Shown: positions 1 through 30,212 of the stretch, piece after piece
How positions within the stretch are numbered: position 1 is the first letter of the stretch
Layout of the letters: every line of letters begins with the position of its first letter
Origin: Escherichia phage LF82-4
Sequence record: PV660448
Strand: one strand, 5' to 3'
DNA length: 64,000 nt
Notes under the pieces: model-generated
The model's database searches: none
Told to the model about the DNA's origin: nothing
Seen by the model: the letters and a program-made list of their open reading frames with translations, nothing else
Position numbers and translations under genes: made by a program

Positions 1-183
1 AGGAGCAGCAAAAATAGTTAAGCCTGATTGCAGCCCTGCATTCAGTGCACCACCTAGTGCGATATTCAACATCGGAATACGAGTAGGGACTTCATCACGA
101 TTATTAAACAGCTTAGACTTAGTCAAGTCTGCAGTCATTTTAGAAGTAGAAGCTTTAATCAGACGAGATTTTAAATCAGACAT
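1..183 (-). CDS. uvsX: UvsX recombinase, N-terminal fragment (gene continues beyond window start)
   Basis: ATG at 181-183 (minus); translation MSDLKSRLIKASTSKMTADLTKSKLFNN... matches T4 UvsX N-terminus as recalled; open to window edge. Confidence 0.85.
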   Translation of the reverse strand, partial: MSDLKSRLIKASTSKMTADLTKSKLFNNRDEVPTRIPMLNIALGGALNAGLQSGLTIFAAP

Positions 184-281
184 TGTATTTTTCCATAGGC
201 ATCATTATATTTTACTCATGTTTAAAAGATAAGATGATTATATACTAAGGGTTATACAGCATTTAAAACTTTAAATGGCTC

Positions 282-830
282 TTAACGAGCCCATTTGATG
301 ATTTCTGTAATCAAACCATTACGTTCGCTTGCATTAAATCCTATAACTTTGTTAGCACCATCATGATTAAGTAATTGATATGTTTGGATTTTGTTATGAA
401 TTGCAAACTCTTCAAAATGTGAAATGACTGTATTAAAACCGAATGAAGACAAAGTAATAAGGTCGTCTTCAAAACTTTCAGTCATTTCGTTACGTGTTAA
501 AATAATTGTGAACACATCATGGTTTTGGCAAAGACGAACATAGTCCTGTTCATAAACGTCAAGAACCGAGTCCGCATCTTGTCGAATACGCCCATAAACC
601 CAGTTACTAATATATCCACGGTCTAACAGATAAATCTTAGTAGGGTCTAAATAATTCAACATCGTTTCGAAACAGCCAACTTCATTTCGAGACTTAACAT
701 CGAAACGCCCATCAACTGTTCGTTTAGGGAAATCAATCTTTACATATCTTTCACTAATTTCCATTATGTCATTAATGAAAGTTGTTTTACCAGCATTATC
801 TGGGCCGTCTACTAAAATAATTTTAGCCAT
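282..830 (-). CDS. thymidylate-kinase-like P-loop kinase (occupies the locus where T4 has beta-gt)
   Basis: 182 aa; Walker A GPDNAGKTT near N-terminus and DRGY LID-like motif typical of dNMP/TMP kinases; ATG start; stop 1 nt after upstream gene. Confidence 0.6.
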   Translation of the reverse strand: MAKIILVDGPDNAGKTTFINDIMEISERYVKIDFPKRTVDGRFDVKSRNEVGCFETMLNYLDPTKIYLLDRGYISNWVYGRIRQDADSVLDVYEQDYVRLCQNHDVFTIILTRNEMTESFEDDLITLSSFGFNTVISHFEEFAIHNKIQTYQLLNHDGANKVIGFNASERNGLITEIIKWAR

Positions 831-831
831 T

Positions 832-1731
832 TTATTCCTCGATTACGACATCTTCGTATTTAGGTATATTATACGGTGAAGAAATTAAAGCATTAAAGTA
901 GATGAACTCACCAAGACCTGGATGGAATACTTCTTCAGGATTTTCGAAATATTGAATTTTCGGACGTCCTTTAAGAATTTGATAGTACTCAGTTTTAGTT
1001 GGTTTAAAAATTCGAATCAGCGCTTCTTCAGGATACTTATTTCTGTCGAAGCTATTATTTGGATCGGTTATATAAAGCGGTTGACCTAATTGAATTGCAC
1101 ATTCAACCACTTGTTCAAAACGATAACATGGGTCACTAATTCGAAATGGATGAAAAATACCATCTAGATGAATAGGAGCCAAATCACCTACAAGACGCTG
1201 CATGATGGAAGGACGTATAACTTTCTGAGTTACGATAATCTTATTACCATCTGCACCGGCGTTAACCAGCACTTCTTTTTGACGTTCATTCAACACGGTA
1301 GTTTGAAGTGAACGATTAACTGACAACATATCGGTTTTTAAGAATTCGTCAATATAAAAACGTGGTTTATTAGGGTCTGCCGTGATATTGAAATTGAATT
1401 CTACATCAAAAGCGCCGTCATATCCAGTGATATCTGTTATTAGAAAATCACAATCATAATAAGCAATTAATGAATCAACCACAAATTCATTTTCAGACCA
1501 GAAATATTTACGAGTGTTATACGCGTTATCTTTATACCATAATGGAACAAACTTAAATTCCGGGAAAAGACGTTCACATTCTTTAATATCAGATGCATTA
1601 CGTGGATATGTAATCACATCACCTGGATTAGCACGGTGCAAATGAAGTTGGAAGTTGCCATCCTTAAGGATAGCATACTGTCCAGTTTCATAAGACCGCA
1701 TACTCAAGATAGGTACGCGGAAAATAGCCAT
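832..1731 (-). CDS. hypothetical 299-aa protein; candidate DNA sugar transferase by position only
   Basis: ATG overlaps stop of gene 42 (TAATG coupling); sits between uvsX and 42 where T4 has beta-glucosyltransferase; no motif recognised by eye. Confidence 0.55.
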   Translation of the reverse strand: MAIFRVPILSMRSYETGQYAILKDGNFQLHLHRANPGDVITYPRNASDIKECERLFPEFKFVPLWYKDNAYNTRKYFWSENEFVVDSLIAYYDCDFLITDITGYDGAFDVEFNFNITADPNKPRFYIDEFLKTDMLSVNRSLQTTVLNERQKEVLVNAGADGNKIIVTQKVIRPSIMQRLVGDLAPIHLDGIFHPFRISDPCYRFEQVVECAIQLGQPLYITDPNNSFDRNKYPEEALIRIFKPTKTEYYQILKGRPKIQYFENPEEVFHPGLGEFIYFNALISSPYNIPKYEDVVIEE

Positions 1732-2447
1732 TAGTCAAGGAATCCTTTAACATAATCAAAATCACGTTCAAACACATGGGCACTTACCATGGTATGAGTA
1801 TAATCACCAACTTCTACACCACATTCGTTAGCGATATAATGAAGTAATTTTCCTTGGAGATAAAAATCCAACTGCATAACAACAGCACAGTTCTGAGAAC
1901 GCATATGACAGTGGGTATAAAGCTTACCGTCACGAATATAATAAGTCACTGAGTCAGTACATGGATATTCAAGTGTTTCGTCCGAATCAAGCAAAGCCTG
2001 ATCAGAACTTTCTAGAATTTGGAACACAACTCTTCGAGAGTTAGGTTTCTCTTTAAGTTCTTTTAGAAGAGCTGGTAATTGGGCCGCAATGCGAGGACCA
2101 TAGAAAGTGTTGAAGTTCGCCGGCAAAGCGTCTGATTTAGGTTTAGAAATAAATTTAGCGACATTAGGATATGCCTTAAACGCTTCTTCTGCATCAGTAC
2201 CACCAGAAATCATAAACTTCCAGAAGTCTTCGGCATATTCATAAGAGATGCGGTTAATACGTGGGTCGGTCATTTTGAATGATGATGGATTGTCAACAAC
2301 TACTGTCATGGACCCGATTTCATTACAACGTCCAATACGAGAATCAGTTACGAATTCAGGATTTTCTAAAATTTCACGATTGACTGCTTTAAATGCGGCT
2401 TGAAAATCTGCGGCTTTGATATATTTCATTGTGTTATGTTTTCCCAT
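1731..2447 (-). CDS. 42: dCMP hydroxymethylase (thymidylate synthase fold)
   Basis: 238 aa; TS-family pattern incl. catalytic-Cys region EYPCTDSV and RSQN...QLDFY segment; GAGGT RBS 5 nt before ATG; T4 synteny. Confidence 0.85.
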   Translation of the reverse strand: MGKHNTMKYIKAADFQAAFKAVNREILENPEFVTDSRIGRCNEIGSMTVVVDNPSSFKMTDPRINRISYEYAEDFWKFMISGGTDAEEAFKAYPNVAKFISKPKSDALPANFNTFYGPRIAAQLPALLKELKEKPNSRRVVFQILESSDQALLDSDETLEYPCTDSVTYYIRDGKLYTHCHMRSQNCAVVMQLDFYLQGKLLHYIANECGVEVGDYTHTMVSAHVFERDFDYVKGFLD

Positions 2448-2489
2448 GTTTACCTCAATACAATTTATTATATACTCAATTCGTAAAGC

Positions 2490-2729
2490 TTATTTGAATT
2501 TCTTGGCAATGTTGATATAACGTAAAGCTTCAGAATCTATACTTCCAAGAACACTATGAAGGAATGCATCAGTGTAGTATTCCAATTGAACAGGTTCTTT
2601 AATCACTTTAGCCGCTTTGGTTTCAAACAGGCCCATAAGGGCCTTTTTAAGAATTTGTTCGTTAGTGTTCAGTTTTATAGTCAAAATCTCTTCATTAAGT
2701 TGGTGGTTAAAAGTTTTTCTAGAAATCAT
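2490..2729 (-). CDS. hypothetical protein (79 aa)
   Basis: ATGA overlap with upstream 386-aa gene; no TM segment so not an Imm homologue. Confidence 0.5.
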   Translation of the reverse strand: MISRKTFNHQLNEEILTIKLNTNEQILKKALMGLFETKAAKVIKEPVQLEYYTDAFLHSVLGSIDSEALRYINIAKKFK

Positions 2730-3886
2730 TCCGGGTACCTCAAAGCGTCATCAGAGTTAGTTATATCAATAATAGATATAGAGTTTTCTGATAACCCATT
2801 TTTAGATAACTGACGTTTATAATATCTTTCACAATATGTACACGTCGTCCCGCAGATTTCATTAGCACAATCGAAATCTGGATGTCTGAACCACCTTTTT
2901 TCTAAAAAACCGTCTAACAATGAGGTTTCAATATTTACTGTATGTGAAAACTCAGTCTCATTTTCAAGAGTGAAAATAGTCTCTAAAGGCTTCCACAGTT
3001 CTAACAAATTACCTTCAAACTTTTCAGAAGCGTATGCTTCAAGAACTTTCAAAATGTAGTCTGTGCTACCTGTACGTCCTGAAACTTTGAATTGAGTGAT
3101 ACCAATATCATTATAAAGTTTCAAATCTTGAGGACGAACAAAACGAGTTCTCAACCAGTTAAATGGGTCTGTATCACGAGCTTTAATGCAGTGTTGCATT
3201 GGATATCCATTTAAGGATTTAGCATCATCAGCTGTAACATCAGTACTATGGAAAATATAGCAAGAGTCACGATAACTACAATGTGTTGTATACCCTTTAC
3301 CAGCATTAGAACAGAACTCATTTACAAGAACTTCAAATATTATATTGTTCTTATTGCAAAACTCTGCTGCACGCTTCAGGAAAGAAACTGAACGGTTCTT
3401 ATGAATTCCACAGCAGACCTTTTTGATATTGTATTGGTCATGTAAGTATTTTATTTGAGTTACAGCATCGACATGTAGAATTGTTGAAACTTCAATCTCA
3501 ATGTCTTTATTGACTTCACGAACAATTTCCATAACAACAGGGTTAGCGATAGTAATACGCCATACGCCTATTGACCAAAGATACTGAACATAATCCTGAA
3601 TAGCTTTCTTCTTCCACTCGACTAGTTCTCTTTTTGAACCAGGATTTATCGTGTTGAGTGTATAGTTAAAGCAAATACCTAATTCGTTACAACGTTTAAC
3701 GTAATCTTCTAACATCTTTTTGTCAACGTCAGGAAGCCTAAAATCAGGTCTGGCTGCTACAAAAGCCATTTCTCTTGTAGAGCCATATACTTCGTTTATC
3801 AAGCTATTAGGATAGGTTTTATTGAGCTCTACGATTTTATCAAGAAGAGCTAAATCAAAATTCGTTCCGATTTTAAAAGTATTCAT
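2726..3886 (-). CDS. hypothetical 386-aa enzyme; tentative resemblance to peptidase-U32 (RlhA/TrhP/UbiU-type) family
   Basis: ATG start; TIM-barrel-like N-terminal pattern and Cys cluster FCSNAGKGYTTHCSYRDSC plus C-terminal CANEICGTTCTYC; assignment by eye only. Confidence 0.55.
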   Translation of the reverse strand: MNTFKIGTNFDLALLDKIVELNKTYPNSLINEVYGSTREMAFVAARPDFRLPDVDKKMLEDYVKRCNELGICFNYTLNTINPGSKRELVEWKKKAIQDYVQYLWSIGVWRITIANPVVMEIVREVNKDIEIEVSTILHVDAVTQIKYLHDQYNIKKVCCGIHKNRSVSFLKRAAEFCNKNNIIFEVLVNEFCSNAGKGYTTHCSYRDSCYIFHSTDVTADDAKSLNGYPMQHCIKARDTDPFNWLRTRFVRPQDLKLYNDIGITQFKVSGRTGSTDYILKVLEAYASEKFEGNLLELWKPLETIFTLENETEFSHTVNIETSLLDGFLEKRWFRHPDFDCANEICGTTCTYCERYYKRQLSKNGLSENSISIIDITNSDDALRYPE

Positions 3887-3942
3887 TTTTTTGCATCTCG
3901 CGTTAATTGATGCGATGGTTTTTGCAGGTCTTACTTAAATTA

Positions 3943-4344
3943 TTATAGATTTGGTTTATATGATTTAAATGTTTCGAATTCGCCTTTATTCATAAGAGCT
4001 TTGAATTCGTCAGGACGCATAGCTTTGTCGTCGATAATCCAATCATATACTGGTTTATGTGTTAGCAAATTATGGTACTTCAAACCAATGTTTTCCAAGT
4101 TCTGAATCAGACTTGGGAGAATGTCAATTGCTATACGACCAGGACCTACCGACTTCATACCACGGGCAGTGTAAAGCGTTATGGTATGCCCTGCATCATA
4201 CAGAGCATTAATGGCAGACACCATTTCGACGTCTGGTTTGAAGTTCACGTAATCACGATTGTTATTCCACTCTGTTATACAATCATCGACATCAAAACAA
4301 AGATTAAGCATGTTTTCTACACGGTGCATTAGATTCGTTCCCAT
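3943..4344 (-). CDS. HAD-superfamily small phosphatase (KdsC-like)
   Basis: 133 aa; HAD motif I FDVDDCIT, motif II ITLYTARG, motif IV IIDD; alternative ATG at 4329 overlaps upstream stop (TAATG). Confidence 0.6.
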   Translation of the reverse strand: MGTNLMHRVENMLNLCFDVDDCITEWNNNRDYVNFKPDVEMVSAINALYDAGHTITLYTARGMKSVGPGRIAIDILPSLIQNLENIGLKYHNLLTHKPVYDWIIDDKAMRPDEFKALMNKGEFETFKSYKPNL

Positions 4345-6014
4345 TGATGAGTGATATCGCCACCGATTGGACGATAAGAAACACCAGTTTCTTTATCAGT
4401 TAGTACCCATTTACCAGGATTTTTTGTAATCAGAGTAGCCGTTACAGGTTCTGCTACGTCATAACTAATAGAGCCGTCTTGAAGTACACGGCCCATGTTA
4501 CGTAATTGCTTAGTCAGAAGTTCCATACCTTTATAATATGCGGCTACCGCTTTAAGTGGATTATTCTTGAAATAACCACCTAATGCAATCCAGATAATTG
4601 CCACCGCCAAATGATGATACTCGTTAAACGAACTCATCTTTCCATATTTGTAAATTAATGGATTGATGTTAATAGTCACATTACAAGTTGTTTCATCAAT
4701 AGTAAACTGTCCCCAGGTCGGATTAGCATTGAATTCATCATAACCTGAAACAGCATAAAGCACTTTAGCTTCATCATACAATTTTGGCCCGTAAATCTTG
4801 GTTTCGCCAAAATATCCACGAGGGTCGATAAACTTGACTTCGCCGTTATCAGTAATCATAGTATTACTGAAGTTCGGGTCACCATGAATAACAGAGTACT
4901 GTCCCTGAGAACGATTATGATAACGAATAAGGTGTTCTAAAGCTTGTTTCAGCATTGGCTTCAGACGTCCAATCTTAGTGTAGTTCACATGTGTGATTTT
5001 ACCAAATGAATCAATCAATGGTTGAATACTTTCACAACGATCAATAACTTTCGTATAGAATTCTTTAGTGAAATCACGACGAACAGTTTCAGGACTTACA
5101 AAATACGTGTCTGTGCTGAATTTCAGTGCATCTAAAATTGCATCAACAATTTGTGGACGAGCAAGACTTGATTTGGATTTAATATATTCAAATGCCGGCT
5201 TACCTTTAATGCGTTCCATTTCAAAGTTATTTTCATTAACAGAAACTAACTGAGGAACTGAATCTGATTTCACTTTCAAATACCACGAAATCTCATCTTT
5301 CTGAAGAGCTCGTCCCTGTTCGGTTAATGCGAATTTAGTTACAGTTTCTTCACCAATTTCAACTGCATTAAAACTACGATTAAGTTCACGAACTTCATGA
5401 GCTTTTTCAAGTTTAGGCATATCACCTAAATCAATTAGATTCATAAGCTCTGATTTATTGAATGCGCCGCTGTAAAGGAATTCTACGAAATCACGTCCTT
5501 TGCAGTATTCATGAATTTCCTCATCGGTAGAACCCATATAGAATTCCCAGTCTTTGAACTGATAAATTCCTACAACATTACCACCTGTTGAACCTACGTT
5601 AGTGATATTTTCACCGTCGAAATTATACCGACATTCGTCACCCTTAACATAGATTGCGTTAACATTCCAAGACCATGAACCAAAATCAGGAATAATATCA
5701 CACCAGTTAACAATTACATTATGGCCATCTAAATCTTTGTGTAATTTAGCAAGAGCATAAGCAGAACCATACGCTTCATCAACTGTACGAATAGTCACAT
5801 TGAACCCTTCTTGCTCACAATAAGCTCGAACAGTTTCAGCAAATTTTGAATGAACTACTACAATAATTTCATCTGCGCCAAGGTCAGAATAAATTGTATA
5901 CAAATTGCTCAGAATAGTGTCTTGTTTATAGTTAACAAGCACCTTAGGAATATGATGCGTTATTGGATACAAACGAGTTGCCAGTCCAGCACCAAGAATA
6001 ACAGCTTTTTTCAT
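4329..6014 (-). CDS. bifunctional sugar-1-phosphate nucleotidylyltransferase / APH-type sugar kinase
   Basis: 561 aa; N-terminal LGAGLATRL nucleotidyltransferase signature; C-terminal HGDPNFSN and IDPRGYFG kinase motifs (aminoglycoside/choline-kinase fold); GAGGA RBS. Confidence 0.7.
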   Translation of the reverse strand: MKKAVILGAGLATRLYPITHHIPKVLVNYKQDTILSNLYTIYSDLGADEIIVVVHSKFAETVRAYCEQEGFNVTIRTVDEAYGSAYALAKLHKDLDGHNVIVNWCDIIPDFGSWSWNVNAIYVKGDECRYNFDGENITNVGSTGGNVVGIYQFKDWEFYMGSTDEEIHEYCKGRDFVEFLYSGAFNKSELMNLIDLGDMPKLEKAHEVRELNRSFNAVEIGEETVTKFALTEQGRALQKDEISWYLKVKSDSVPQLVSVNENNFEMERIKGKPAFEYIKSKSSLARPQIVDAILDALKFSTDTYFVSPETVRRDFTKEFYTKVIDRCESIQPLIDSFGKITHVNYTKIGRLKPMLKQALEHLIRYHNRSQGQYSVIHGDPNFSNTMITDNGEVKFIDPRGYFGETKIYGPKLYDEAKVLYAVSGYDEFNANPTWGQFTIDETTCNVTININPLIYKYGKMSSFNEYHHLAVAIIWIALGGYFKNNPLKAVAAYYKGMELLTKQLRNMGRVLQDGSISYDVAEPVTATLITKNPGKWVLTDKETGVSYRPIGGDITHQWERI

Positions 6015-6055
6015 GTTGTGGTCCTCATTGGTAAGTAGGAGTATTGTACACTATT

Positions 6056-6199
6056 CTAGTTAAAGCATCCATACTTTGCTTGTAGTCCAATCATAATCCA
6101 TCCGATTATAAGAGTCGGAATCATTACTGGAGCCGTTAAGCTCCAGTAGATAGTCATGACAAGCATCAATAGTAAAAGTCCTATTGTTATTGCTTTCAT
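6056..6199 (-). CDS. small hydrophobic protein (47 aa), not in ORF track
   Basis: ATG overlaps stop of the SIS gene (ATGA); MKAITIGLLLLMLVMTIYWSL... two hydrophobic segments; fills gap 6015-6195. Confidence 0.35.
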   Translation of the reverse strand: MKAITIGLLLLMLVMTIYWSLTAPVMIPTLIIGWIMIGLQAKYGCFN

Positions 6200-6831
6200 T
6201 GCTCGCCTCGTAACATGGCACCTAGTGCACCGCCTGGATGGAACTTAAGGAAATCATTAGAGGTAAATCCACGTTCAGACGAAAGGTTGATAGCAAAAGT
6301 ATCGATAAGCGCTAACAATAATGTAGTGGACATGGTCGGAGCCAGAGAATTCTCATCAACCTCTACTGCGATGCCTGTACAGAAAGAGTAATCAAAAAGG
6401 GCTTCATTTTCTTGTGGAATGTCTGGGTTACAATGCAACAGAATCTGTTTGACGTTCGGTCGAATCATTTTAAGATGCTTAGCCACGCCTATCATTTCTT
6501 CAGTTTTACCAGAACGACTAATATGAATCAACACATCATTAGGCGCAATAAATCCTGCATCACCGTGAGAATAATGCCCAGTGTTCAAGTACATACTTGG
6601 GATACCGAGTGAAGCAAATGTCTCAGAAGCTTTAGTTGCAATATTAGCATTCTTACCAACACCTGTAATAATTACTCGGCTTTCATAATTACTAAGTCCA
6701 GGGCGTCGAAGAGTTTCTAGAATAGCATTATAACGAGCAGGGTTTTGACTAATTACTTTGGCCATAGCGGCCAAAGAAGAAGCTTGTTTTATGATTGCGT
6801 CAATAGCGATATTAATAGGAGTAGTTTTCAT
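6196..6831 (-). CDS. SIS-domain sugar-phosphate isomerase (KdsD/GutQ-type arabinose-5-phosphate isomerase-like, no CBS domains)
   Basis: 211 aa; motifs GVGKNANIA, HISRSGKTEE, APTMSTT, HPGGALG characteristic of API SIS domains. Confidence 0.75.
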   Translation of the reverse strand: MKTTPINIAIDAIIKQASSLAAMAKVISQNPARYNAILETLRRPGLSNYESRVIITGVGKNANIATKASETFASLGIPSMYLNTGHYSHGDAGFIAPNDVLIHISRSGKTEEMIGVAKHLKMIRPNVKQILLHCNPDIPQENEALFDYSFCTGIAVEVDENSLAPTMSTTLLLALIDTFAINLSSERGFTSNDFLKFHPGGALGAMLRGEQ

Positions 6832-6871
6832 ATTTCTCTCATTTAATTAGTTTACCGTCCATGGCATTATA

Positions 6872-9583
6872 TCAAAAATCGAACATATCGAAGAGAGATG
6901 CTTTCTTCTCGTAATCGAGTTTCGCTGCTGATGTGAATCCTTCAAGTGGTTTAATAAATGTCTTCTCAAGGAGAACAGTGTAGTCCATCCAATGAAGTAC
7001 GTCGTCTTTAATTAAATCTGTGATTTCAGTACCAGAAGGCCATGCGATACATTTATCACCGAATGGGTTTCCTTCACGTAAAGGCAGAACATATACTTTT
7101 TCACCTTCTACAACTTGTGGAGCATCAATATTACCTTTGATAGCTCGGTTATATGTCAGAATTCCACGAATATGGAACGGACATTTAGGACCAGGGAATC
7201 CACCAACGTCATATTTAGCAATGTTATTCGCAGAAGATACCGACGCGATGCTAATATAATTCAATTGACGGAATTCTTTTTCAAACTCTTTAAAATATTC
7301 TTGTAATGATTCTTCACCTTCTTGAAGCATACGGCGAATACATTCTTTAAGAGCTTTCTGTACTGCTTTAGGGGTCGAAGATTTCTGTGTTTCGAGACCC
7401 ATGATTTTGAGTTTAGGCTCAGCGTATCTGGTTCCTTCCATATCCCACACGTTTAATGCATAACGTTTCTTACCAGTCCAGAATCCGCCAATACCTTTAG
7501 AACCGAGTGGAGGACCAGCGATAGCTTCTCGGTCCATGAACATTAAGTGTTGTTTATTGTTCATGTATTCACACATTTCACGGAAACCTCTATCAATAGC
7601 CGGTTCCATACGTTCACGAGCGAACTTATCTAAGAAGTCTACCCAATGGTTGGTATCACGGAATTTAGATTCACCAACCTTATCAATAATTTTATCTGCA
7701 GATACGTAAATAGAGTCTGTATCACCATAAAGAACGAAAGCTTCACCTTCTGTACCACAAACTTCGTTCAGATATTCATTAACTTTACGTTCAATCCACT
7801 GTAAAGCCATTTGCCCGAATGTTGTGATTGCAGTAGCATTACGCAAATCATAATAACGGAACCAAACGTTTCCAAGTGCACCATAAAGTGAGTTGATGAG
7901 CAATTTACGGTTAATCTGTGCAGTCATACCTGCAACTTCAGTACGTTGAGCTCTAAACAACATTTCATTAAGAGATTTAGCAGACAACTTTTTAATCTTT
8001 TCTTTAATCTCGTCAGTGAAGTCAAAACGATAATCAACATCTAATGGTTCATCAACAGAAAGATTAGGATTATGTAAGGCTTCTTTAATTATTTCACCAT
8101 TACGTTGAGCTGCAAGCATGTAACCTTTATGTTCTTTACGTTGATTAAAGACCTTAGTGATTTCAGTTGGAACTACACCATCACGGTCTTTATAATACAT
8201 CATGCCGTTAGGAGAGCAACTGTACACATCTGAAGGACGTTCAGCGATTGCGTTAATATAATCATGCAGTGGAGCTACTTTAAACGTTCCTGCTATTGTT
8301 TCCGGGCTAATATTCACTTGGCGAATAATACTTGGATACAGGGATGTAAGGTCGAAACTCATTACATATTTGTATCGATTTGGAATAGGTTCCTTAACAA
8401 AAGCACCGGGATAAGGTTGAACCGGGTGAGAACGACCTTGTGGAATCACCTTGCTCTGCTCTTTAAGGCTATTAAAAATAATAGCATCCCATGTTTTAAT
8501 TGGGCTAAACACAGATTGAATCTGTATCTTAGCATAATAACCCATGTCCAAACTCAAGTTGATGAACTGACGCTTAGCATCAATTTGCAATACACGATAC
8601 ACGTCGATAATGTTATAAGAAATATACCGTTGGTGATTGCTTTCACGAAGCTTAGAAATAGGGCCGTCATATTTCAGTTTACCAACGTTCAATTCAAATT
8701 CTGAAATGTAATCCAGAGAATACGACGGTTGATTGGTAAAAGAGAATTTTTTGTAAAGGTCGATATAATCAAGAACAGAGATACCGAACAATGTAATGAT
8801 TTCACGAGAACCATACATGTTTTCGATAACTTTAACACGAGTTTTACGATGTGGTGATAAACGTTTCGCAGTAGATTCGCCAAAAATATTCTTGATTCGG
8901 TTATACACATATGGAATATCAAATGACTCAACGTTCCATCCAGTCAAAATGACAGGAGTTTTCTGTTGCCAGAAGTTGAGATATTCCATCAACAATTCTT
9001 TTTCGTTATCGAACGGCATATAAATGATTTTATCGATAATTTCAGATGGAACTTCATCACCGCCTTGTTCTTGAAGCTTAGCCGCAATTTCGATAGACCA
9101 TTCTTCTACATTACCATACGGAGAATTCAATAGATCAAATACGTAGAACCTGTCGTCAATTGAGTCATAATGGGTGATAGCATCAATCGGATGTTTTGCT
9201 TGTGACGGCTCAGGGAACCCATCCGGAGATGTTACTTCGATGTCGAAGTTAGCCACACGAATTTTTGTATGGTCGTATTTGATTTCATAGTTATAAGTGT
9301 CAGACAAATACGCCAATTTGAAATCGTCCATGCCGAGTGCTTCAAGTCCGATATCTTCCATGCGTTTAATCCATTGGGAGGCATCACGCATATTAGCGAA
9401 CAACTTACGAGTACACGGCTTACCGTAGATATCGAAATATTTCGTAGCCTGACTTTCTGGGCAATGAGCAAACAATGATGGTTTATATTCTACTTCACGA
9501 GTACATTCACGGCCATTAGAATCGATGTAACGTTCAAAAATTGAATCACCAATCTGTTCAACCGTTAAGTAAAATTCTTTCAT
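6872..9583 (-). CDS. 43: DNA polymerase (family B)
   Basis: 903 aa; N-terminus MKEFYLTVEQIGDSIFERYIDSNG... and exo/pol motifs (FDIEV, YGDTDS) match RB69 gp43 as recalled. Confidence 0.97.
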   Translation of the reverse strand: MKEFYLTVEQIGDSIFERYIDSNGRECTREVEYKPSLFAHCPESQATKYFDIYGKPCTRKLFANMRDASQWIKRMEDIGLEALGMDDFKLAYLSDTYNYEIKYDHTKIRVANFDIEVTSPDGFPEPSQAKHPIDAITHYDSIDDRFYVFDLLNSPYGNVEEWSIEIAAKLQEQGGDEVPSEIIDKIIYMPFDNEKELLMEYLNFWQQKTPVILTGWNVESFDIPYVYNRIKNIFGESTAKRLSPHRKTRVKVIENMYGSREIITLFGISVLDYIDLYKKFSFTNQPSYSLDYISEFELNVGKLKYDGPISKLRESNHQRYISYNIIDVYRVLQIDAKRQFINLSLDMGYYAKIQIQSVFSPIKTWDAIIFNSLKEQSKVIPQGRSHPVQPYPGAFVKEPIPNRYKYVMSFDLTSLYPSIIRQVNISPETIAGTFKVAPLHDYINAIAERPSDVYSCSPNGMMYYKDRDGVVPTEITKVFNQRKEHKGYMLAAQRNGEIIKEALHNPNLSVDEPLDVDYRFDFTDEIKEKIKKLSAKSLNEMLFRAQRTEVAGMTAQINRKLLINSLYGALGNVWFRYYDLRNATAITTFGQMALQWIERKVNEYLNEVCGTEGEAFVLYGDTDSIYVSADKIIDKVGESKFRDTNHWVDFLDKFARERMEPAIDRGFREMCEYMNNKQHLMFMDREAIAGPPLGSKGIGGFWTGKKRYALNVWDMEGTRYAEPKLKIMGLETQKSSTPKAVQKALKECIRRMLQEGEESLQEYFKEFEKEFRQLNYISIASVSSANNIAKYDVGGFPGPKCPFHIRGILTYNRAIKGNIDAPQVVEGEKVYVLPLREGNPFGDKCIAWPSGTEITDLIKDDVLHWMDYTVLLEKTFIKPLEGFTSAAKLDYEKKASLFDMFDF

Positions 9584-9630
9584 TTAATTTCCTTTAGACG
9601 AGTTATTGTCTTTTGTTTGTTGATGAACTT

Positions 9631-15208: not shown

Positions 15209-16224
15209 TGTGTTGCCTCAATATAAAGTTCGTTAGAATATTTGACCAGCGCTTCTCTGTCTTCGTCTGAGATATCTGGAATCGCGTCAATATATTCTTT
15301 AATGATATCTTGAAGTGATTTAATCTCGATTTCCTGGTCGTCATCAGATTCAACACTGTTATCAACTTTAGAAACCATACGAAGAGAGTGAACTACTTTT
15401 TCAAGTTCAGATTCAAACTTAGTCAACTCTGAATCAATTTCTGATACTATAACACGTACGGCTAGATTAGTATAATCAGAATAATTAATTTTGCCTTTAA
15501 ACGGATAAGTGATTCGTCGATGCCATGTTGTTTCATTAGGAATAAATTCCATACGTTCAACATCAGTGTCAAATACCCAGAATCCACGTGGGTCGTTCTC
15601 GTCACCTGCAGTAAGGGTCCATGGTGTCCCAATATATTTGACGTTAGCAGCTTCAGAGATTGTGTGGAAGTGGCCAGACCAGACTTGTTTATAGGTCTTT
15701 AAGAAATCAGGTTCAAGCCCATGAGACTTCATTCCTTTATAGAAATAAAAGCCGTTCAGTTCCCAATGACCAACACAATACGCAGCAGAAGAAGTCTTGA
15801 TGTGCTCTAAGATTTCACCTGTATTTTCTTCACACATCCATGGAATTAAATCAATCAGACACCCATCGAAATCAACAGTCGTAGGTTTATCATAAATAAC
15901 AACATTTTTACGATGAGACAAAAGCTCTTGGGTTGTATTAGGGTATAAAGTTGTCTTATAAAAAAGGTCGTGGTTACCCAAAATAGTGTTAACGGTTATT
16001 CCAGCGTTTTCAGCCATATCAAATAATTCACGAGTAAACTCCATACAACGTTGTGTTGTGTGAGCTCGTACATCAAATACGTCCCCGTACTGTATCCATG
16101 TTGTTATTCCATTTTTAACAGAATAATCCACCATTTGTTTGAATCCATGACGTTGGATGTTTTGAATCCACTCATCATCCTTTTTTACACCTAAGTGCAA
16201 ATCGCCTACGTTAAGAATTTTCAT
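15205..16224 (-). CDS. 47: recombination nuclease subunit (Mre11/SbcD-like)
   Basis: 339 aa from ATG at 16224 (MKILNVGDLHLG...), AAGGTG RBS; phosphoesterase motifs GDLH, GNHD, GHWH. Confidence 0.93.
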   Translation of the reverse strand: MKILNVGDLHLGVKKDDEWIQNIQRHGFKQMVDYSVKNGITTWIQYGDVFDVRAHTTQRCMEFTRELFDMAENAGITVNTILGNHDLFYKTTLYPNTTQELLSHRKNVVIYDKPTTVDFDGCLIDLIPWMCEENTGEILEHIKTSSAAYCVGHWELNGFYFYKGMKSHGLEPDFLKTYKQVWSGHFHTISEAANVKYIGTPWTLTAGDENDPRGFWVFDTDVERMEFIPNETTWHRRITYPFKGKINYSDYTNLAVRVIVSEIDSELTKFESELEKVVHSLRMVSKVDNSVESDDDQEIEIKSLQDIIKEYIDAIPDISDEDREALVKYSNELYIEATQ

Positions 16225-17038
16225 ATTGCACCTTAAATTTACCATAAATTATACTGTGATAACTTAAATCAGGAAAACCTTCTGCGACGGCTAAAGGTCT
16301 AAACTTCTTAGGACTTATTCTACCACATTTTACCCAAAGAGCATATAGTGCTTCATAATATTCAAATAATGGTCCTTTACGAGCTTCAGAAACAGCTTTA
16401 CGCACTTTGTCCTTTATTGACGGGTCTAAATTTCTAAGGGTTTCACTAATTTTGTTTCGATGGGTTTCATTAATAAGATTTCCTTTAAGCCAGCCTTCGG
16501 GTTCAGTCCCTGGGACAAACATTTTCTTTTCTTTGCCATTATTATACCATTTGCGGCCTTTATTGTGACTAGAGGCTTTATATTCAGGAGAACGACCTTT
16601 TACATTACCTTCAGGTATATAAGGTAGAAAACTTTGTTCTAACGTTTCAGGGTTGTATGAGTGTATATGGCCTTTACCATTATGTGAGCCGTACAATGGG
16701 TGCTCTTCTTTTGGAAGTGATAATCCGAAAAATCCTTTAGGAGCAGCAATTGCTTTATTCATATACATCGGGTTATTGGCAGCATCCACCTTTAGTTGGA
16801 GTAAACGTTCAGCTTTTGTCGCTTCTTCTCTCGTGGCGTGTTCACTTACAATACATGAATCAAAAAGGTGTGGATTCATTTTTAGTTCAGAATTGTAAAT
16901 TTCCTTATATGCTTTTGATAAAACCGTTCCGTGATATCCAGCTTTATGCTTTGCAATACTTGTAGAACCTATATAAAACGGTGGAAGTTTGTCACCATCA
17001 TAAATCGTAAAATATACTATGTACATGTTATTCTCCAT
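16211..17038 (-). CDS. GIY-YIG homing endonuclease (Seg-like), free-standing
   Basis: 275 aa; GIY-YIG variant YIVYF...FYIGST, conserved R/E/N, NUMOD3-like HNKGRKWYNNG repeat; 3' end overlaps gene 47 start by 14 nt; locus where T4 has alpha-gt. Confidence 0.8.
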   Translation of the reverse strand: MENNMYIVYFTIYDGDKLPPFYIGSTSIAKHKAGYHGTVLSKAYKEIYNSELKMNPHLFDSCIVSEHATREEATKAERLLQLKVDAANNPMYMNKAIAAPKGFFGLSLPKEEHPLYGSHNGKGHIHSYNPETLEQSFLPYIPEGNVKGRSPEYKASSHNKGRKWYNNGKEKKMFVPGTEPEGWLKGNLINETHRNKISETLRNLDPSIKDKVRKAVSEARKGPLFEYYEALYALWVKCGRISPKKFRPLAVAEGFPDLSYHSIIYGKFKVQYENS

Positions 17039-21912: not shown

Positions 21913-22023
21913 TTAATTAATTAACCAAGCGTTGATAAGCAAACCATATTGCGAATAAAATTCTGGGCCAAAATGAAAAATCATATCATTTATAGTATCC
22001 ATAATATAATTCAATTTAATCAT
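21913..22023 (-). CDS. small hypothetical protein (36 aa)
   Basis: ATG at 22023, 2 nt after nrdG stop; longer track ORF overlaps nrdG by 119 nt. Confidence 0.3.
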   Translation of the reverse strand: MIKLNYIMDTINDMIFHFGPEFYSQYGLLINAWLIN

Positions 22024-22486
22024 GTTTCCACACCCCATCGGTATTTGACCAAAGTCGCTGATTATCTGATCCTCGCCACAGCTTTTTGGTCGGAAGATTT
22101 TTCTCATACTTCCCATCAATAATAACATCAACATATTTAAGCATTTTTAGTTGTTTAATATCTTCAAACTTATATCCTGTCCACAACCAAATGCTTTTAT
22201 TGGGATAAAGATTTTTAATAGTTTGAACCACAGAGTGAATCACATCTCGGTTATCAGGATAGAGAGGGTCACCTCCGGTTATAGTCAATCCTTCTATATA
22301 ATCATTATTCAAACATTCAATTAATTGTTCTAGTGTTTCACCAGTGAATGGAATACCATTTCTAGCATTCCATGTTGATTTATTATAACACCCTTCGCAT
22401 TTATGCAAACAACCTGTGACGAAAAGAACGACCCTACAACCAGGGCCATTCACAAAATCGCAAGGATAAAATCTATCATAATTCAT
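22016..22486 (-). CDS. nrdG: anaerobic ribonucleotide reductase activating protein (radical SAM)
   Basis: 156 aa; Cys cluster CLHKCEGCYN; 4-nt overlap with nrdD. Confidence 0.9.
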   Translation of the reverse strand: MNYDRFYPCDFVNGPGCRVVLFVTGCLHKCEGCYNKSTWNARNGIPFTGETLEQLIECLNNDYIEGLTITGGDPLYPDNRDVIHSVVQTIKNLYPNKSIWLWTGYKFEDIKQLKMLKYVDVIIDGKYEKNLPTKKLWRGSDNQRLWSNTDGVWKHD

Positions 22487-24300
22487 TGGTGTTTAACCCT
22501 ATGCATGATTTCTTTATTTTTGCCGAGATTAAATCCACGTTCGTTCGGGTTCCCCAAATAACCGCACGTTCTTCTTATGGTGTTCATCTTTTTAGGATCA
22601 GTTTCTCCACAAACTGAACAAACAAATCCATTTTCAGTAGGAGTCATCTCATGGGTACTTCCACACGTAAAACATTTATCTACTGGCATGTTAACACCAA
22701 AATAATCTAAATGTTGTGCAGCATAATCCCACACGGCCTCAAGACCTTTTAAGTTATTTTTCATATCAGGAAGTTCAACATAAGAAATGTGACCACCTGT
22801 CGCAATGAAATGATATGGCGCTTCACGAGAAATCTTTTCAAACGGAGTAATATTTTCTTCTACTGAAACATGGAAACTATTAGTGTACCAGCCTTTATCA
22901 GTAACATCCTTTACACTTCCATATTTTTCTGTATCAAGTTTACAGAAGCGATAACAAAGGTTTTCAGCAGGAGTAGAATACAAGCTAAAAGCAAATCCGG
23001 TTCTTTCAGTCCACTGTTTAAGACGAGCATTCATTTTAGTTAAAATTTCTTGCCCAATATCACGACCGACAAGAATATTCAATTCGTGAATACCAATGTA
23101 TCCTAAAGACACTGAACTTCTACCGTTTTTAAATAACTCAATTATGTCGTCATCAGGTTTAAGACGAACCCCGAATGCACCTTCTTGGTAAAGAATAGGA
23201 GCAACAGTCGCTTTAACACCCTTTAAAGAACTAATTCTACACATCAAGGCTTCAAAACACAGATCCATTCGTTCATTAAATAATTCGATAAATTTCTGTT
23301 CATTGAACTGTGTTCCAATATAAGAATCTAATGCGATACGAGGAAGATTCAGTGTTACAACACCAAGATTATTACGTCCATCAAGAATTTCATTACCAGT
23401 CGAATCTTTCCATACGCTCAAGAAACTACGGCAGCCCATTGGAGAAACTGGAACTGAAGAACCGGTAATAGCTTTATTATTCTTAACAGAAATAATGTCA
23501 GGATACATTCTTTTGCTTGCACATTCTAACGCAAGTTGTTTAATATCATAGTTCGGATCATCTTTATAAAGATTAACACCTTCTTCAACAAACATAACAA
23601 GTTTAGGAAAAATAGGAGTTATTCCATCACGACCAAGACCTTTAATCCGATTTTTCAGAATTGCCTTCTGAATCATTCGTTCAGTCCAATCGGTTCCCGT
23701 ACCAAATGTAATTGTTACAAAAGGCGTTTGTCCGTTTGAACTAAAGAGAGTATTTACTTCATATTCATAAGCTTGGAACGCATCGTATACGTCTTTTTCT
23801 GTTTTAGATTGGGCATAATTCAACGCATCAGCGATTTGCCATTTTTCTGCATCCTCAATATGTTTTGCATAGGTGCGTTTAACATAAGGAGAAAGAACTT
23901 TATCGACATTCGCAAATGTAGTTCCGCCATACTGATGTGAAGCAACTTGTGCAGTAATTTGTGCCATAATTGCAGTAGCAACACCAATCGATTTAGGCGT
24001 TTCAATTTGAGCATTGCCTAATTTAAATCCATTCTCAAGCATCCCCTTTAAATCGACTAAACAGCAATTAGTAAATGGAAGAGCAGGAGAATAATCAATA
24101 TCATGCATATGAATGATTCCGCTTTCATGCGCATTCATAATAAAAGACGGGACCATATTTTTGGCAATGTGCTTAGACACAATACCAGCCATAAGGTCCC
24201 GTTGAGTTGGAAAAACACGAGAATCTTTATTAGCATTCTCGTTCAAAAGATCTTTATTAGTTTTATAAATTAATCCTTCAATTTCTTTTTCAATTTTCAT
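22483..24300 (-). CDS. nrdD: anaerobic ribonucleoside-triphosphate reductase (glycyl radical enzyme), uninterrupted
   Basis: 605 aa; C-terminal glycyl-radical motif RRTCGYLG and Zn-ribbon CFTCGS...CSVCG; single continuous ORF (no intron). Confidence 0.95.
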   Translation of the reverse strand: MKIEKEIEGLIYKTNKDLLNENANKDSRVFPTQRDLMAGIVSKHIAKNMVPSFIMNAHESGIIHMHDIDYSPALPFTNCCLVDLKGMLENGFKLGNAQIETPKSIGVATAIMAQITAQVASHQYGGTTFANVDKVLSPYVKRTYAKHIEDAEKWQIADALNYAQSKTEKDVYDAFQAYEYEVNTLFSSNGQTPFVTITFGTGTDWTERMIQKAILKNRIKGLGRDGITPIFPKLVMFVEEGVNLYKDDPNYDIKQLALECASKRMYPDIISVKNNKAITGSSVPVSPMGCRSFLSVWKDSTGNEILDGRNNLGVVTLNLPRIALDSYIGTQFNEQKFIELFNERMDLCFEALMCRISSLKGVKATVAPILYQEGAFGVRLKPDDDIIELFKNGRSSVSLGYIGIHELNILVGRDIGQEILTKMNARLKQWTERTGFAFSLYSTPAENLCYRFCKLDTEKYGSVKDVTDKGWYTNSFHVSVEENITPFEKISREAPYHFIATGGHISYVELPDMKNNLKGLEAVWDYAAQHLDYFGVNMPVDKCFTCGSTHEMTPTENGFVCSVCGETDPKKMNTIRRTCGYLGNPNERGFNLGKNKEIMHRVKHQ

Positions 24301-24770
24301 TTTAAACTCTTTCTAAGCTGCTTTTTGAATGAAGCTATTAATTGTGTTTTAGTATCAGATTCATTATATTCAAATCCTCTTTGAAGCATCTCGGTCATCA
24401 TTTCCTCTTTACCTAGTCTTGAGAACTCTTTAGTTTTGTCTGGAACAAAATTAGGATGGATATTATTATCAGAATAATCTTGTTTCAAATAAGCAAGAAG
24501 AGCTTCAAGCCATTCGAGGTAGTCGACATCACGTCCTTTAAGACCGGAACGGTTGAACTTATGCTTCATTTGACCTTCTGCTGCGTTGCACAGATTACAG
24601 AGTAATCCACGAACTCTACCGGCTTTTGGCCCGTTTAATTCATGGTCGTGGTCAAGATGGTTACCTTGAACATCAGGGTCTAATTCACGGTGGCAAATAG
24701 GACACTTACCATTCTGTGCATCATAAAATTTTTGTTTTTCTTCTTTATATTTTGCGCCTGATAATAACAT
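24297..24770 (-). CDS. 49: endonuclease VII (Holliday junction resolvase)
   Basis: 157 aa; Zn-binding CPICHREL and HLDHDHE...LLCNLCN motifs. Confidence 0.9.
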   Translation of the reverse strand: MLLSGAKYKEEKQKFYDAQNGKCPICHRELDPDVQGNHLDHDHELNGPKAGRVRGLLCNLCNAAEGQMKHKFNRSGLKGRDVDYLEWLEALLAYLKQDYSDNNIHPNFVPDKTKEFSRLGKEEMMTEMLQRGFEYNESDTKTQLIASFKKQLRKSLK

Positions 24771-24805
24771 GATAAACCCTTACCTTAAATAGATAAGGGT
24801 ATTTA

Positions 24806-25231
24806 TTAACTTAAACGTCTTTCTAAATATTCAATGTATTCTGCGGCTGCTTGCATCAGGTTACCTTCATAGCCGTCGTTATTTTCTTGTCCAGCTAATT
24901 TAGCTAATGCATAAGAAATTCGTTCACCTTCGAATTCACCAAGTTTACTACCTAGCACATCAGCAATATCAGCCGAATCAATTTCTTCGAGTTCATCTAT
25001 TGAATGGGATTCCCAGAAGCACCAAAGAGAAGTATCACGGTCATAGATGCAAAGTTTCTCACCTGTGTTCAACATCACTTCGATAATGCCATGGTCGCCA
25101 TAACCATCTTCGGTAGTAGTACCAATTACCTTGAGGATTGTTCCTTTCTTTAATTCAGGAAACTTGACTTGTAGTTCTTCGTCTTCTTTAACAATCTTGA
25201 ACCATTTACCGCGAGTTTCAGAAATATTCAT
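24806..25231 (-). CDS. hypothetical acidic protein (142 aa)
   Basis: ATG at 25231; alternative ATG at 25369 would add a 46-aa extension. Confidence 0.5.
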   Translation of the reverse strand: MNISETRGKWFKIVKEDEELQVKFPELKKGTILKVIGTTTEDGYGDHGIIEVMLNTGEKLCIYDRDTSLWCFWESHSIDELEEIDSADIADVLGSKLGEFEGERISYALAKLAGQENNDGYEGNLMQAAAEYIEYLERRLS

Positions 25232-25232
25232 A

Positions 25233-25403
25233 TCAATATTCTCTATAAAAGTTACGATGAGAACGTTTAGCTTTGCGAAGCTGACGTTTAGTAGGACGAA
25301 CTGTAAATAGTTGTCCAGAGAAAAAATTCGAATCGGTTTTAATAAGCAAATACCAATCATGCTTGCCATTTTTTAATAAACGGTACAATAATTTAACTTG
25401 CAT
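25233..25403 (-). CDS. small basic protein (56 aa)
   Basis: ATG at 25403 with GGAAGAG RBS; track start is TTG. Confidence 0.35.
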   Translation of the reverse strand: MQVKLLYRLLKNGKHDWYLLIKTDSNFFSGQLFTVRPTKRQLRKAKRSHRNFYREY

Positions 25404-25531
25404 AATAATCTCTTCCCATTTCCATATCAATTAATTCATTTATTGAAGGTTCATCATAACATGGTTCTTCGTCGTTGTAAACCGTTTCGACGTCTGGCTC
25501 GACAGTCTCCCATCGAGCAGAATACCACGGT

Positions 25532-25867
25532 TTAACCCCGGAGTTTATTGAGCTCTTCATAATCAATCCAGGATTCTAGCCCTGACGGCAGGTCACATTC
25601 AATGTTCCACAGAAGCTCTTCAATGGCTTGCAGGCGATTATATTCTTCAACAGTAATAGTAACCATTGTTTCAGGCTTTTTAACCATCATGTCATTCATC
25701 AGAATGTACAGATCTTCACAAACAGCCGGGTCGTCCCATGTCCATATTTCAGCATCTCGAACCAATGAAGTCGGAATAGAATTTAAAACTTCAAGCTTAG
25801 TAGGAGCGTCAGGACCGAGAAGAGTTGCTACAAATTTATATGCTTTGGCGAAATCAATATCGTTCAT
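25532..25867 (-). CDS. hypothetical protein (111 aa)
   Basis: track ORF. Confidence 0.55.
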   Translation of the reverse strand: MNDIDFAKAYKFVATLLGPDAPTKLEVLNSIPTSLVRDAEIWTWDDPAVCEDLYILMNDMMVKKPETMVTITVEEYNRLQAIEELLWNIECDLPSGLESWIDYEELNKLRG

Positions 25868-25885
25868 TTAAAATATTCTCGCAGT

Positions 25886-28103: not shown

Positions 28104-28126
28104 AATATTTTCCTCTCGTTAAGATA

Positions 28127-28161
28127 GATTTATTATACTCCAACCATCCTTGGTTGTAAAC
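28127..28161 (-). promoter_or_regulatory. early promoter cassette (GTTTAC -35, 18-nt spacer with CAACC/GGTTG inverted repeat, TATAAT -10), copy 1
   Basis: minus strand GTTTACAACCAAGGATGGTTGGAGTATAATAAAT; 32-bp core identical to 29147-29181. Confidence 0.6.
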
Positions 28162-28165
28162 CGTT

Positions 28166-29125: not shown

Positions 29126-29146
29126 TTTATATTCCTCATGTTGAAA

Positions 29147-30176: not shown

Positions 30177-30212
30177 AACTATTTCCTCAGATTGAATTGG
30201 AACTCAAAACCA

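Follow-up and report, generated by a model that had tools for sequence, protein, structure and literature searches.

Phage RB69 and Mosigvirus NP carry arabinose on their DNA, and the genes behind this modification are the closest described counterparts of the locus analysed here, a gene cluster of Escherichia phage LF82-4 (record PV660448) within a stretch of 64,000 nucleotides that we call the window. Arabinose on RB69 DNA was described by Thomas et al. (2018; PMC6024577), who reported arabinosyl-5-hydroxymethylcytosine (ara-hmC) from high-performance anion-exchange chromatography (HPAEC) and matrix-assisted laser desorption/ionization (MALDI), and nominated ORF055c and the resequenced 561-amino acid (aa) ORF53_52c as candidates for UDP-arabinose synthesis. 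Lee et al. (2026; PMC13326640) find by nuclear magnetic resonance (NMR) and by liquid chromatography coupled to mass spectrometry (LC-MS) that the arabinose is ether-linked to 5-hydroxycytosine and not to hmC, and a 2026 paper on NP calls the hmC assignment erroneous (PMC13390438). Virion DNA of both RB69 and NP bears arabinose on every cytosine, and mono- or di-arabinosyl-5-hydroxycytosine has been demonstrated in it (PMC13326640; PMC13390438). In vitro, the phage transferases take UDP-arabinofuranose as their donor (UDP-Araf; PMC13326640).

The window comes from a T4-like, RB69-like Mosigvirus. Its bases 1-9600 are 97.8% identical at the DNA level to RB69, where their counterpart is 23766-33367, and the order of the genes matches that of gp45-gp55 in the RB69 record. 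Compared with the arabinofuranosyl-5-hydroxycytosine (Afh) cluster of RB69 and HY126, we found the same genes in the same order, a 561-aa fusion that is intact as in resequenced RB69, a hydroxylase and a phosphatase near-identical to PDB 9iqc and 9iqw, and a second arabinosyltransferase (RB69 gp3) that falls outside the window. There is no difference of substance, and LF82-4 is another Mosigvirus isolate, nearest to the LF82-series phages (99.6% identity to Escherichia phage LF82-1 over bases 1-9600). We take the PDB chains 9iqc (hydroxylase) and 9iqw (phosphatase) to be the HY126 enzymes. We are highly confident that this RB69-like Mosigvirus encodes here its system for hypermodifying DNA with arabinosyl-5-hydroxycytosine, which in full covers positions 282-6831 of the window, and none of our observations contradicts that pathway. 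From the 97.8-99.6% identity to its relatives we infer that LF82-4 virion DNA would contain mono- or di-arabinosyl-5-hydroxycytosine. The gene cluster has already been published (2018-2026), and finding it here is a rediscovery. Mahler 2025 and He 2026 are reportedly also among the publications on the Afh cluster.

A preliminary description of this DNA had delimited the system to 2490-6831. The location was right, but the co-directional run extends beyond 2490 into a thymidylate synthase (ThyA) homolog, a glycosyltransferase and a kinase, so that the system continues through 282-2447; the 386-aa enzyme that it left unnamed is a U32-family protein, which has no place in the pathway proposed there.

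Sugar activation, base hydroxylation and transfer

The 211-aa protein of the cluster (PHROG 5670) matches Pfam SIS (E 9e-11), TIGR00393 KpsF/GutQ (E 2e-32) and KdsD (E 7e-31) in profile searches, bearing out the KdsD/GutQ-type isomerase proposed earlier, and its PDB matches are the arabinose-5-phosphate isomerases 3etn, 5uqi and 2xhz (E 1e-19 to 1e-25, aligned across the SIS domains). The KpsF/GutQ match spans model positions 2-153 of 268 and scores 112.8 bits, below the curated cut-off of 203.7, and the protein is SIS-only, without the C-terminal tandem CBS pair. It probably works like KdsD, yet it is a SIS-only relative and not a full member of the family.

The preliminary description had also named a nucleotidyltransferase/kinase fusion and a small HAD phosphatase, and both were recovered. 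The former has exactly the length of resequenced RB69 ORF53_52c; its N-terminus matches NTP_transferase (E 8.5e-10, residues 3-99) as well as NCBIfam models of sugar-1-phosphate nucleotidylyltransferases, its C-terminus gives weak kinase-fold matches only (fructosamine kinase, EcKL and RIO, E 2e-3 to 9e-3, residues 308-409), it has a PDB match to 1jyk, and the motifs GAGLATRL, HGDPNFSN and IDPRGYFG are all present in the translation. The 133-aa phosphatase matches TIGR01689, a HAD-type capsule-biosynthesis phosphatase (E 1.9e-13), has no Pfam match, and differs from PDB 9iqw_A by one substitution over 129 aligned residues (E 4e-87). Roles of the arabinose-5-phosphate isomerase, AfhE and AfhF are assigned in PMC13326640, according to which HY126 AfhE (He et al. 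2026, as cited there) converts arabinose-5-phosphate to the 1,5-bisphosphate and later uridylylates arabinose-1-phosphate, and AfhF strips the 5-phosphate from arabinose-1,5-bisphosphate between both AfhE steps.

In LF82-4, the SIS enzyme would convert host ribulose-5-phosphate to arabinose-5-phosphate, the C-terminal kinase domain of the 561-aa protein would phosphorylate C1 to give arabinose-1,5-bisphosphate, the 133-aa phosphatase would then remove the 5-phosphate, and the N-terminal nucleotidyltransferase domain would yield UDP-arabinofuranose. The route from ribulose-5-phosphate through arabinose-5-phosphate to an NDP-arabinose donor, as first drawn from the letters of the DNA, agrees with published work (PMC6024577; PMC13326640), but its steps had been put in the reverse order: the kinase precedes the phosphatase.

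The gene next to this branch, previously read as a dCMP hydroxymethylase, is of the 5-hydroxy-dCMP (5hodCMP) synthase type instead. Its 238-aa product, the ThyA homolog, is near-identical over its full length to PDB 9iqc, 9ir2 and 9iqu (E 2e-161), shares only 25% identity with T4 gp42, and reads RSQN (HMRSQN) where T4 has RSND; RSQN (D169N) is the signature of 5hodCMP synthases (PMC13326640). RB69 gp48 makes 5-hydroxy-dCMP with oxygen from 18O2 and with a loosely bound flavin (Lee et al. 2026, PMC13326640). The 299-aa glycosyltransferase belongs to PHROG 3891 (E 3e-156) and has no Pfam and no PDB sequence match; its RB69 homolog shows GT-B-like structural matches and is assigned as an arabinosyltransferase (PMC13326640, Table 1). 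The 182-aa kinase matches PHROG 761, thymidylate kinase (E 6e-45), and gives a weak dTMP kinase P-loop match. By analogy, the ThyA homolog would hydroxylate dCMP at C5 with flavin and O2, kinases would raise 5-hydroxy-dCMP to the triphosphate for incorporation by the polymerase, and the 299-aa enzyme, together with a second glycosyltransferase encoded outside the window, would add one or two arabinoses to the 5-hydroxyl.

This plan resembles the glucosyl-hmC system of T4, in which a ThyA-family enzyme also modifies dCMP before replication, a sugar is then added to the new hydroxyl, and the genes lie in the same neighbourhood between uvsX and gene 43. The differences are that the window would use a hydroxyl and flavin/O2 chemistry where T4 uses a hydroxymethyl and folate, that its arabinose would come from phage-made UDP-Araf and not from host UDP-glucose, and that it has no homologs of alpha-gt and beta-gt, besides the low identity of its ThyA homolog to gp42. 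As had been claimed, both T4 transferases are absent: tblastn found no homolog of T4 alpha-gt, beta-gt, imm, imm.1 or RB69 gp3 anywhere in the 64-kb window, with nothing better than E 0.01 for alpha-gt and beta-gt. The beta-gt locus indeed lacks beta-gt, but it is not empty, since it holds the 299-aa glycosyltransferase and the 182-aa kinase. Nor does T4 carry only imm between genes 42 and 43, as the same text had it, but imm and imm.1. At the T4 alpha-gt position, between genes 47 and 55, the window has a 275-aa open reading frame (ORF; 16211-17038) with no Pfam match and no similarity to alpha-gt.

Two other explanations of the cluster were weighed. The operon could supply an NDP-pentose for hmC that a gene 42 hydroxymethylase of the T4 type produces, the phosphatase step preceding the kinase step, and this was the chemistry initially proposed, with hmC as acceptor base and a report of ara-hmC in RB69 as precedent. 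The report exists and nominated the same genes on the strength of HPAEC and MALDI work (PMC6024577), and the downstream gene is of the thymidylate synthase family, as gp42 is; but its hmC assignment was later called erroneous (PMC13390438), the published base is ether-linked 5-hydroxycytosine by NMR and LC-MS in PMC13326640, and there too the HY126 kinase is reported to act on arabinose-5-phosphate and the phosphatase on arabinose-1,5-bisphosphate. With a ThyA homolog that has 25% identity to gp42, bears the D169N signature and is near-identical to 9iqc, we consider hmC as the acceptor very improbable, and the nucleoside structure in print already refutes it. Still less credible to us is a function of the sugar genes in host envelope or capsule metabolism, as auxiliary metabolic genes of the 3-deoxy-D-manno-octulosonate (KDO) or capsule type. 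Their nearest characterised families are indeed the KdsD/GutQ/KpsF isomerases and a 'capsule biosynthesis phosphatase', and database annotations read GlmU, capsule protein and phosphoheptose isomerase; yet the genes are embedded in the DNA-replication module, with the polymerase on one side and the base hydroxylase, transferase and kinase on the other, RB69 and NP virion DNA is arabinosylated at every cytosine with UDP-Araf as the in vitro donor of the phage transferases, and unrelated phages have this gene set, too, next to DNA glycosyltransferases.

The U32-family protein and its genomic contexts

The 386-aa protein matches Pfam Peptidase_U32 (E 7e-11; 42.2 bits against a cut-off of 22.4) and only weakly NCBIfam UbiU, and its sequence has no match in the PDB even at E 1. 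An AlphaFold2 (AF2) model of good quality (predicted local distance difference test, pLDDT, 89.9) finds in the PDB with Foldseek the U32 protein 5d88 as best match, and otherwise generic TIM barrels. Among 130 diverse U32 members, C192, C203 and C233 are invariant, position 209 is Cys in 58% and His in 41%, and a C-terminal CX4CX3CX2C is 93-95% conserved. The stretch C203-x5-C209-Y-I-x-H falls on the beginning of the Fe-S motif of RlhA, C203 and C209 being aligned with the first two cysteines of that motif, and in HHalign comparisons of the family RlhA is the best of four E. coli paralogs (probability 88%, E 3e-6), a modest preference obtained with a single-sequence template, on which we base no assignment to a subfamily. 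The subfamily is large, with 441 clusters at 50% identity reaching E<=1e-30, and the distant members that we inspected also sit in phage replication modules. Between the window and T4-like phages of other genera (L002, L003, L015-L029; L numbers denote comparison loci) U32 identity is 83-89%; the figures for DNA polymerase, the ThyA homolog and AfhE are 64-80%, 73-83% and 42-72%, and no other protein of the module is as well conserved as U32 among T4-like genera. In the literature, RB69 gp50 is labelled 'sugar or heterocycle reductase' without discussion (PMC13326640, Table 1), and an 'epimerase' listed in the cluster by PMC13390438 is seemingly the same protein.

Described U32 proteins point to another chemistry. 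RlhA is responsible for 5-hydroxycytidine 2501 of 23S rRNA, that is, for C5-hydroxylation of cytosine (PMC5727448); TrhP is responsible for 5-hydroxyuridine 34 of tRNA, and UbiU/UbiV for anaerobic ubiquinone hydroxylations (PMC6747719, PMC10990095). All of them are linked to O2-independent hydroxylations that require prephenate; UbiU/UbiV bind 4Fe-4S clusters, and the same has been inferred for RlhA and TrhP. That prephenate donates the oxygen has been shown for UbiU/V, whereas RlhA and TrhP have yet to be shown to act directly as hydroxylases (PMC6747719, PMC10990095). The phage protein shares with these enzymes the U32 domain, a conserved cysteine set that apparently overlaps the Fe-S motif of the family and an association with prephenate-forming enzymes, and with RlhA its proposed base chemistry, C5-hydroxylation of cytosine. 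It differs in belonging to a very divergent, apparently phage-dominated subfamily with other cysteine spacing and the extra C-terminal CX4CX3CX2C, and in its presumed substrate, a deoxynucleotide in place of RNA or a quinone. Lee et al. mention the RNA hydroxylation routes only as not using 5hodCMP synthase homologs, and do not tie them to gp50 (PMC13326640).

The association with prephenate is seen in gene order. In Serratia phage LC53 and Enterobacter phage Entb_45, a CM_2 chorismate mutase (E 1.7e-11 and 2.4e-10) overlaps the U32 stop codon and precedes the ThyA homolog, and the same arrangement occurs in Yersinia, Proteus and Klebsiella phages, among other relatives. CM_2 genes directly follow U32 in relatives of the genera Winkler-, Kanagawa-, Teguna- and Bragavirus. 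A Tn-seq preprint gives no essentiality data at gene level for LC53. A fusion of 3-deoxy-D-arabino-heptulosonate 7-phosphate (DAHP) synthase and CM_2 stands beside U32 in three unrelated phage lineages (L040, L041/L043, L044), and a DAHP-synthase-family gene directly after it in L009 and L028. Chorismate mutase makes prephenate.

A scan of IMG/VR gave 47 U32 loci which, with metagenomic contigs and after dereplication, form 28 non-T4-like U32 lineages, 40-56% identical to the window protein. Counting genes within six genes of U32, with ±10 kb of the unrelated contigs covered, we found a gp46:47-like glycosyltransferase in 19 of the 28 lineages, an AfhE-like enzyme in 12, a SIS isomerase in nine, a KdsC-like HAD phosphatase in nine, a gp45-like kinase in eight, and DAHP synthase (with or without chorismate mutase) and dCMP deaminase in five each. 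A ThyA-family gene was present in a single lineage, as an ordinary dUMP-type thymidylate synthase (QRSGD, GFN), and a hydroxylase-type ThyA homolog in none of the 28. Two layouts recur: glycosyltransferase, SIS, AfhE, (DAHP synthase-chorismate mutase), HAD and U32, which keeps the window order SIS > AfhE > HAD > U32, and kinase, glycosyltransferase and U32 without sugar-activation genes. These contexts, devoid of the ThyA hydroxylase and in some cases of sugar genes, therefore tie U32 to deoxynucleotide metabolism and DNA glycosyltransferases, and neither to arabinose synthesis nor to a ThyA-type hydroxylase.

Some of these contexts are informative about the possible product. In an unrelated phage contig of ~61 kb (L010, 8001-10000; also L036), the U32 stop is overlapped by the gene of a TET-associated glycosyltransferase (Pfam TAGT, E 4e-8), and also present are a second glycosyltransferase, a dUTPase/dCTP-deaminase-like gene and a UDP-galactopyranose mutase, suggesting that galactofuranosyl-hydroxypyrimidine DNA may be made there without TET or ThyA. 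As judged from its genomic context, L010 pairs a candidate base-oxidising enzyme (U32) with a DNA glycosyltransferase, as modules of TET/JBP dioxygenases and TAGT do; TET depends on O2 and 2-oxoglutarate and acts on 5-methylcytosine in DNA, whereas U32 would be O2-independent. In megaphage-like contigs of up to 466 kb (L004, 7447-9086; L007/L008, 7504-9083), U32 comes directly after dCMP deaminase and beside a thymidylate kinase and a fusion of uracil-DNA glycosylase with PolIII-alpha, without sugar genes, which hints at a hydroxylated uracil nucleotide.

Two further observations were made around U32. One contig with dockerin and GH43 genes (L005/L006, 8001-15428) has two U32 paralogs interspersed among genes for a 5'(3')-deoxyribonucleotidase, a PnuC-like transporter, a deoxynucleoside kinase, a radical-SAM/SPASM protein and a nucleoside 2-deoxyribosyltransferase, and looks like a nucleoside-salvage or modification island. 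In several genera, a 212-aa putative homing endonuclease, not found in the window, lies between the HAD phosphatase and U32 (L002, 5352-5990; L017, L022, L023, L025).

We found U32 in 221 cultured-phage records, with Escherichia, Klebsiella, Shigella, Serratia, Proteus, Yersinia, Enterobacter, Providencia, Edwardsiella, Pectobacterium and Shewanella as the named host genera, besides seven further organism-name groups. The named genera are facultative anaerobes. Of Acinetobacter phages, 57 records contain an AfhE homolog, and a U32 homolog is missing from all of them. The DLP3/Lazarusvirus cluster of these phages has the SIS isomerase, an AfhE-like fusion (~56% identity), the HAD phosphatase, the ThyA-type hydroxylase, a glycosyltransferase and a kinase in the same order as the window, and differs in having extra transferases for a third arabinose and in that precisely the cassette of U32 and the 79-aa gene is missing; phage Lazarus has its HAD gene directly against the ThyA homolog. 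With NrdD as a control for this host correlation, the ten phage groups in which it is carried most commonly do not include Acinetobacter, which does not imply complete absence. The window encodes NrdG (22016-22486) and NrdD (22483-24300), the activase and the strictly anaerobic class III ribonucleotide reductase. With all cytosine replaced by way of an O2-requiring hydroxylase, this anaerobic capacity would otherwise be unusable.

From these comparisons we infer a prephenate-dependent, O2-independent route through U32 to a 5-hydroxypyrimidine nucleotide, which the flavin enzyme would make redundant in air. It would form a second route to this nucleotide with host prephenate as oxygen donor, would let a phage bearing NrdD/NrdG replicate in anoxic gut conditions, and would make of U32 and the flavin enzyme a pair comparable to TrhO/TrhP and UbiI,H,F/UbiU,V in the host. 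On the fuller proposal we are evenly divided: that U32 may be the founding member of a large, mostly viral subfamily hydroxylating C5 of pyrimidine deoxynucleotides without O2 and with oxygen from prephenate, the anaerobic twin of 5hodCMP synthase in RB69-like phages and the sole hydroxylase feeding DNA glycosylation modules in many uncultured phages, in some of which phage-borne DAHP synthase and chorismate mutase would boost prephenate. In the available literature, which did not include He 2026 and Mahler 2025, we found no link of phage U32 to such hydroxylation, and priority is uncertain.

The main competitor is that U32 is not a hydroxylase but assists the flavin enzyme in its redox chemistry, as a flavin reductase would, or modifies the sugar. 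The published labels of reductase and epimerase go in this direction; a flavin monooxygenase needs reducing equivalents, which a protein with two conserved cysteine clusters could pass on, and U32 and the ThyA homolog are always adjacent in T4-like phages. Outside the T4-like phages, in contrast, U32 is kept in 28 lineages without a hydroxylase-type ThyA homolog nearby, in kinase-glycosyltransferase-U32 modules without any arabinose-activation gene, and, in megaphage-like contigs, after dCMP deaminase, where thymidylate kinase is close by and sugar genes are missing; moreover, its recurrent neighbours chorismate mutase and DAHP synthase-chorismate mutase make prephenate, the donor for UbiU/V and a requirement of RlhA- and TrhP-dependent hydroxylation. 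We find a redox or sugar-modifying role unlikely.

Several points weigh against an O2-independent hydroxylase. The cysteines of U32 are spaced otherwise (x10, x5, x23) than in the canonical CX6CX15CX3/4C, and its profile matches RlhA modestly. To form 5hodC in E. coli under aerobic conditions, RB69 gp48 is enough by itself (PMC13326640). Dhakaviruses of E. coli, JS10 among them, have the pathway but lack U32, which is therefore not universally required, and the Acinetobacter correlation is confounded by phylogeny. The ±10 kb covered in unrelated contigs leaves room for a distant ThyA-type hydroxylase elsewhere in those genomes. Finally, chorismate mutase and DAHP synthase were not found in the window; with no chorismate mutase of its own, the phage would therefore rely on host PheA/TyrA for prephenate.

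Gene layout and small reading frames

The six ORFs listed in the preliminary description lie where it had put them, all on the minus strand (Table 1), and they are co-directional and largely translationally coupled, as it had stated: three pairs overlap, by 4 nucleotides (nt; ATGA) between the SIS gene and the 47-aa ORF, by 16 nt between the 561-aa and 133-aa ORFs and by 4 nt between U32 and the 79-aa ORF, and the remaining gaps within 2490-6831 are 41-56 nt. Further on, the ThyA homolog and the glycosyltransferase overlap by 1 nt, and 1 base separates the latter from the kinase. The RB69 record NC_004928 (L001) splits both the arabinosyltransferase (ORF046c/047c, 2332-3232) and the 561-aa fusion (ORF052c/053c, 5829-7515), which are intact in the window; both splits have been ascribed to sequencing errors (PMC13326640; PMC6024577).

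Table 1. Genes of the cluster, with window coordinates, strand and basis of assignment.
Feature	Coordinates	Strand	Basis
Predicted arabinose-5-phosphate isomerase, SIS only, 211 aa (RB69 gp55 homolog)	6196..6831	-	Pfam, NCBIfam, PDB matches
Hydrophobic peptide, 47 aa (RB69 gp54 homolog)	6056..6199	-	PHROG 3610
Predicted bifunctional arabinose-5-phosphate 1-kinase / UDP-arabinose pyrophosphorylase, 561 aa (AfhE; RB69 ORF53_52c)	4329..6014	-	Pfam, NCBIfam, PDB 1jyk
Small HAD-type phosphatase, 133 aa (AfhF; RB69 gp51 homolog)	3943..4344	-	TIGR01689, PDB 9iqw
U32-family protein with conserved cysteines, 386 aa (RB69 gp50 homolog)	2726..3886	-	Pfam Peptidase_U32
Helical protein, 79 aa (RB69 gp49 homolog)	2490..2729	-	PHROG of unknown function only
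Predicted 5-hydroxy-dCMP synthase, thymidylate synthase homolog, 238 aa (RB69 gp48 homolog)	1731..2447	-	PDB 9iqc/9ir2/9iqu
Predicted first DNA arabinosyltransferase, 299 aa (RB69 gp46:47 homolog)	832..1731	-	PHROG 3891; PMC13326640 Table 1
Thymidylate-kinase-like nucleotide kinase, 182 aa (RB69 gp45 homolog)	282..830	-	PHROG 761; PMC13326640 Table 1

The 47-aa peptide matches PHROG 3610, of unknown function (E 6e-26), has no Pfam or NCBIfam match, and keeps its position in phages of several other genera. The 79-aa protein has no Pfam match even at E 10, and its AF2 model is a low-confidence three-helix bundle (pLDDT 67), too poor for a structure search. Within Mosigvirus its identity is 90-96% (homologs P0142-P0152), compared with 99-100% for U32, and some genomes carry shortened variants of 47-58 aa, suggesting that it may be under weaker constraint than its neighbours. 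Having the slot and the length of the Entb_45 chorismate mutase, this ORF was considered as a diverged chorismate mutase and rejected: it stands in tandem with a true CM_2 gene in L021, L023 and L029 (the genomes with both being Yersinia phages and L029), and HHalign against phage chorismate mutase gives a probability of 0.9%, with no profile similarity.

A scan of 1-7200 for promoters and terminators showed no enrichment, with 24 sites against 26 expected from shuffles. Between the stop of the 79-aa ORF and the start of the ThyA homolog, the minus strand at 2467-2489 reads GCTTTA-N11-TATAAT, followed by GAGG and ATG; judged by the consensus, this resembles a T4 MotA-dependent middle promoter.

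Implications for phage biology

The value of the finding is a correct annotation of a known pathway with its corrected chemistry, 5-hydroxycytosine and not hmC. Beyond that, U32 alone merits further pursuit, since the comparison of genomes yields a specific, testable mechanism for it. If U32 were an O2-independent dCMP hydroxylase, it would explain how phages that replace every cytosine by means of an O2-requiring enzyme replicate in the anoxic gut, and DNA precursors would join RNA and quinones as substrates of prephenate-dependent hydroxylation. A U32 gene beside one for a DNA glycosyltransferase would then serve as a marker for hydroxypyrimidine-glycosylated genomes among uncultured phages without ThyA- or TET-type hydroxylases. 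There would also be a bearing on phage therapy and on the evasion of restriction and CRISPR, because modification status could depend on oxygen and on flux through the aromatic pathway of the host.

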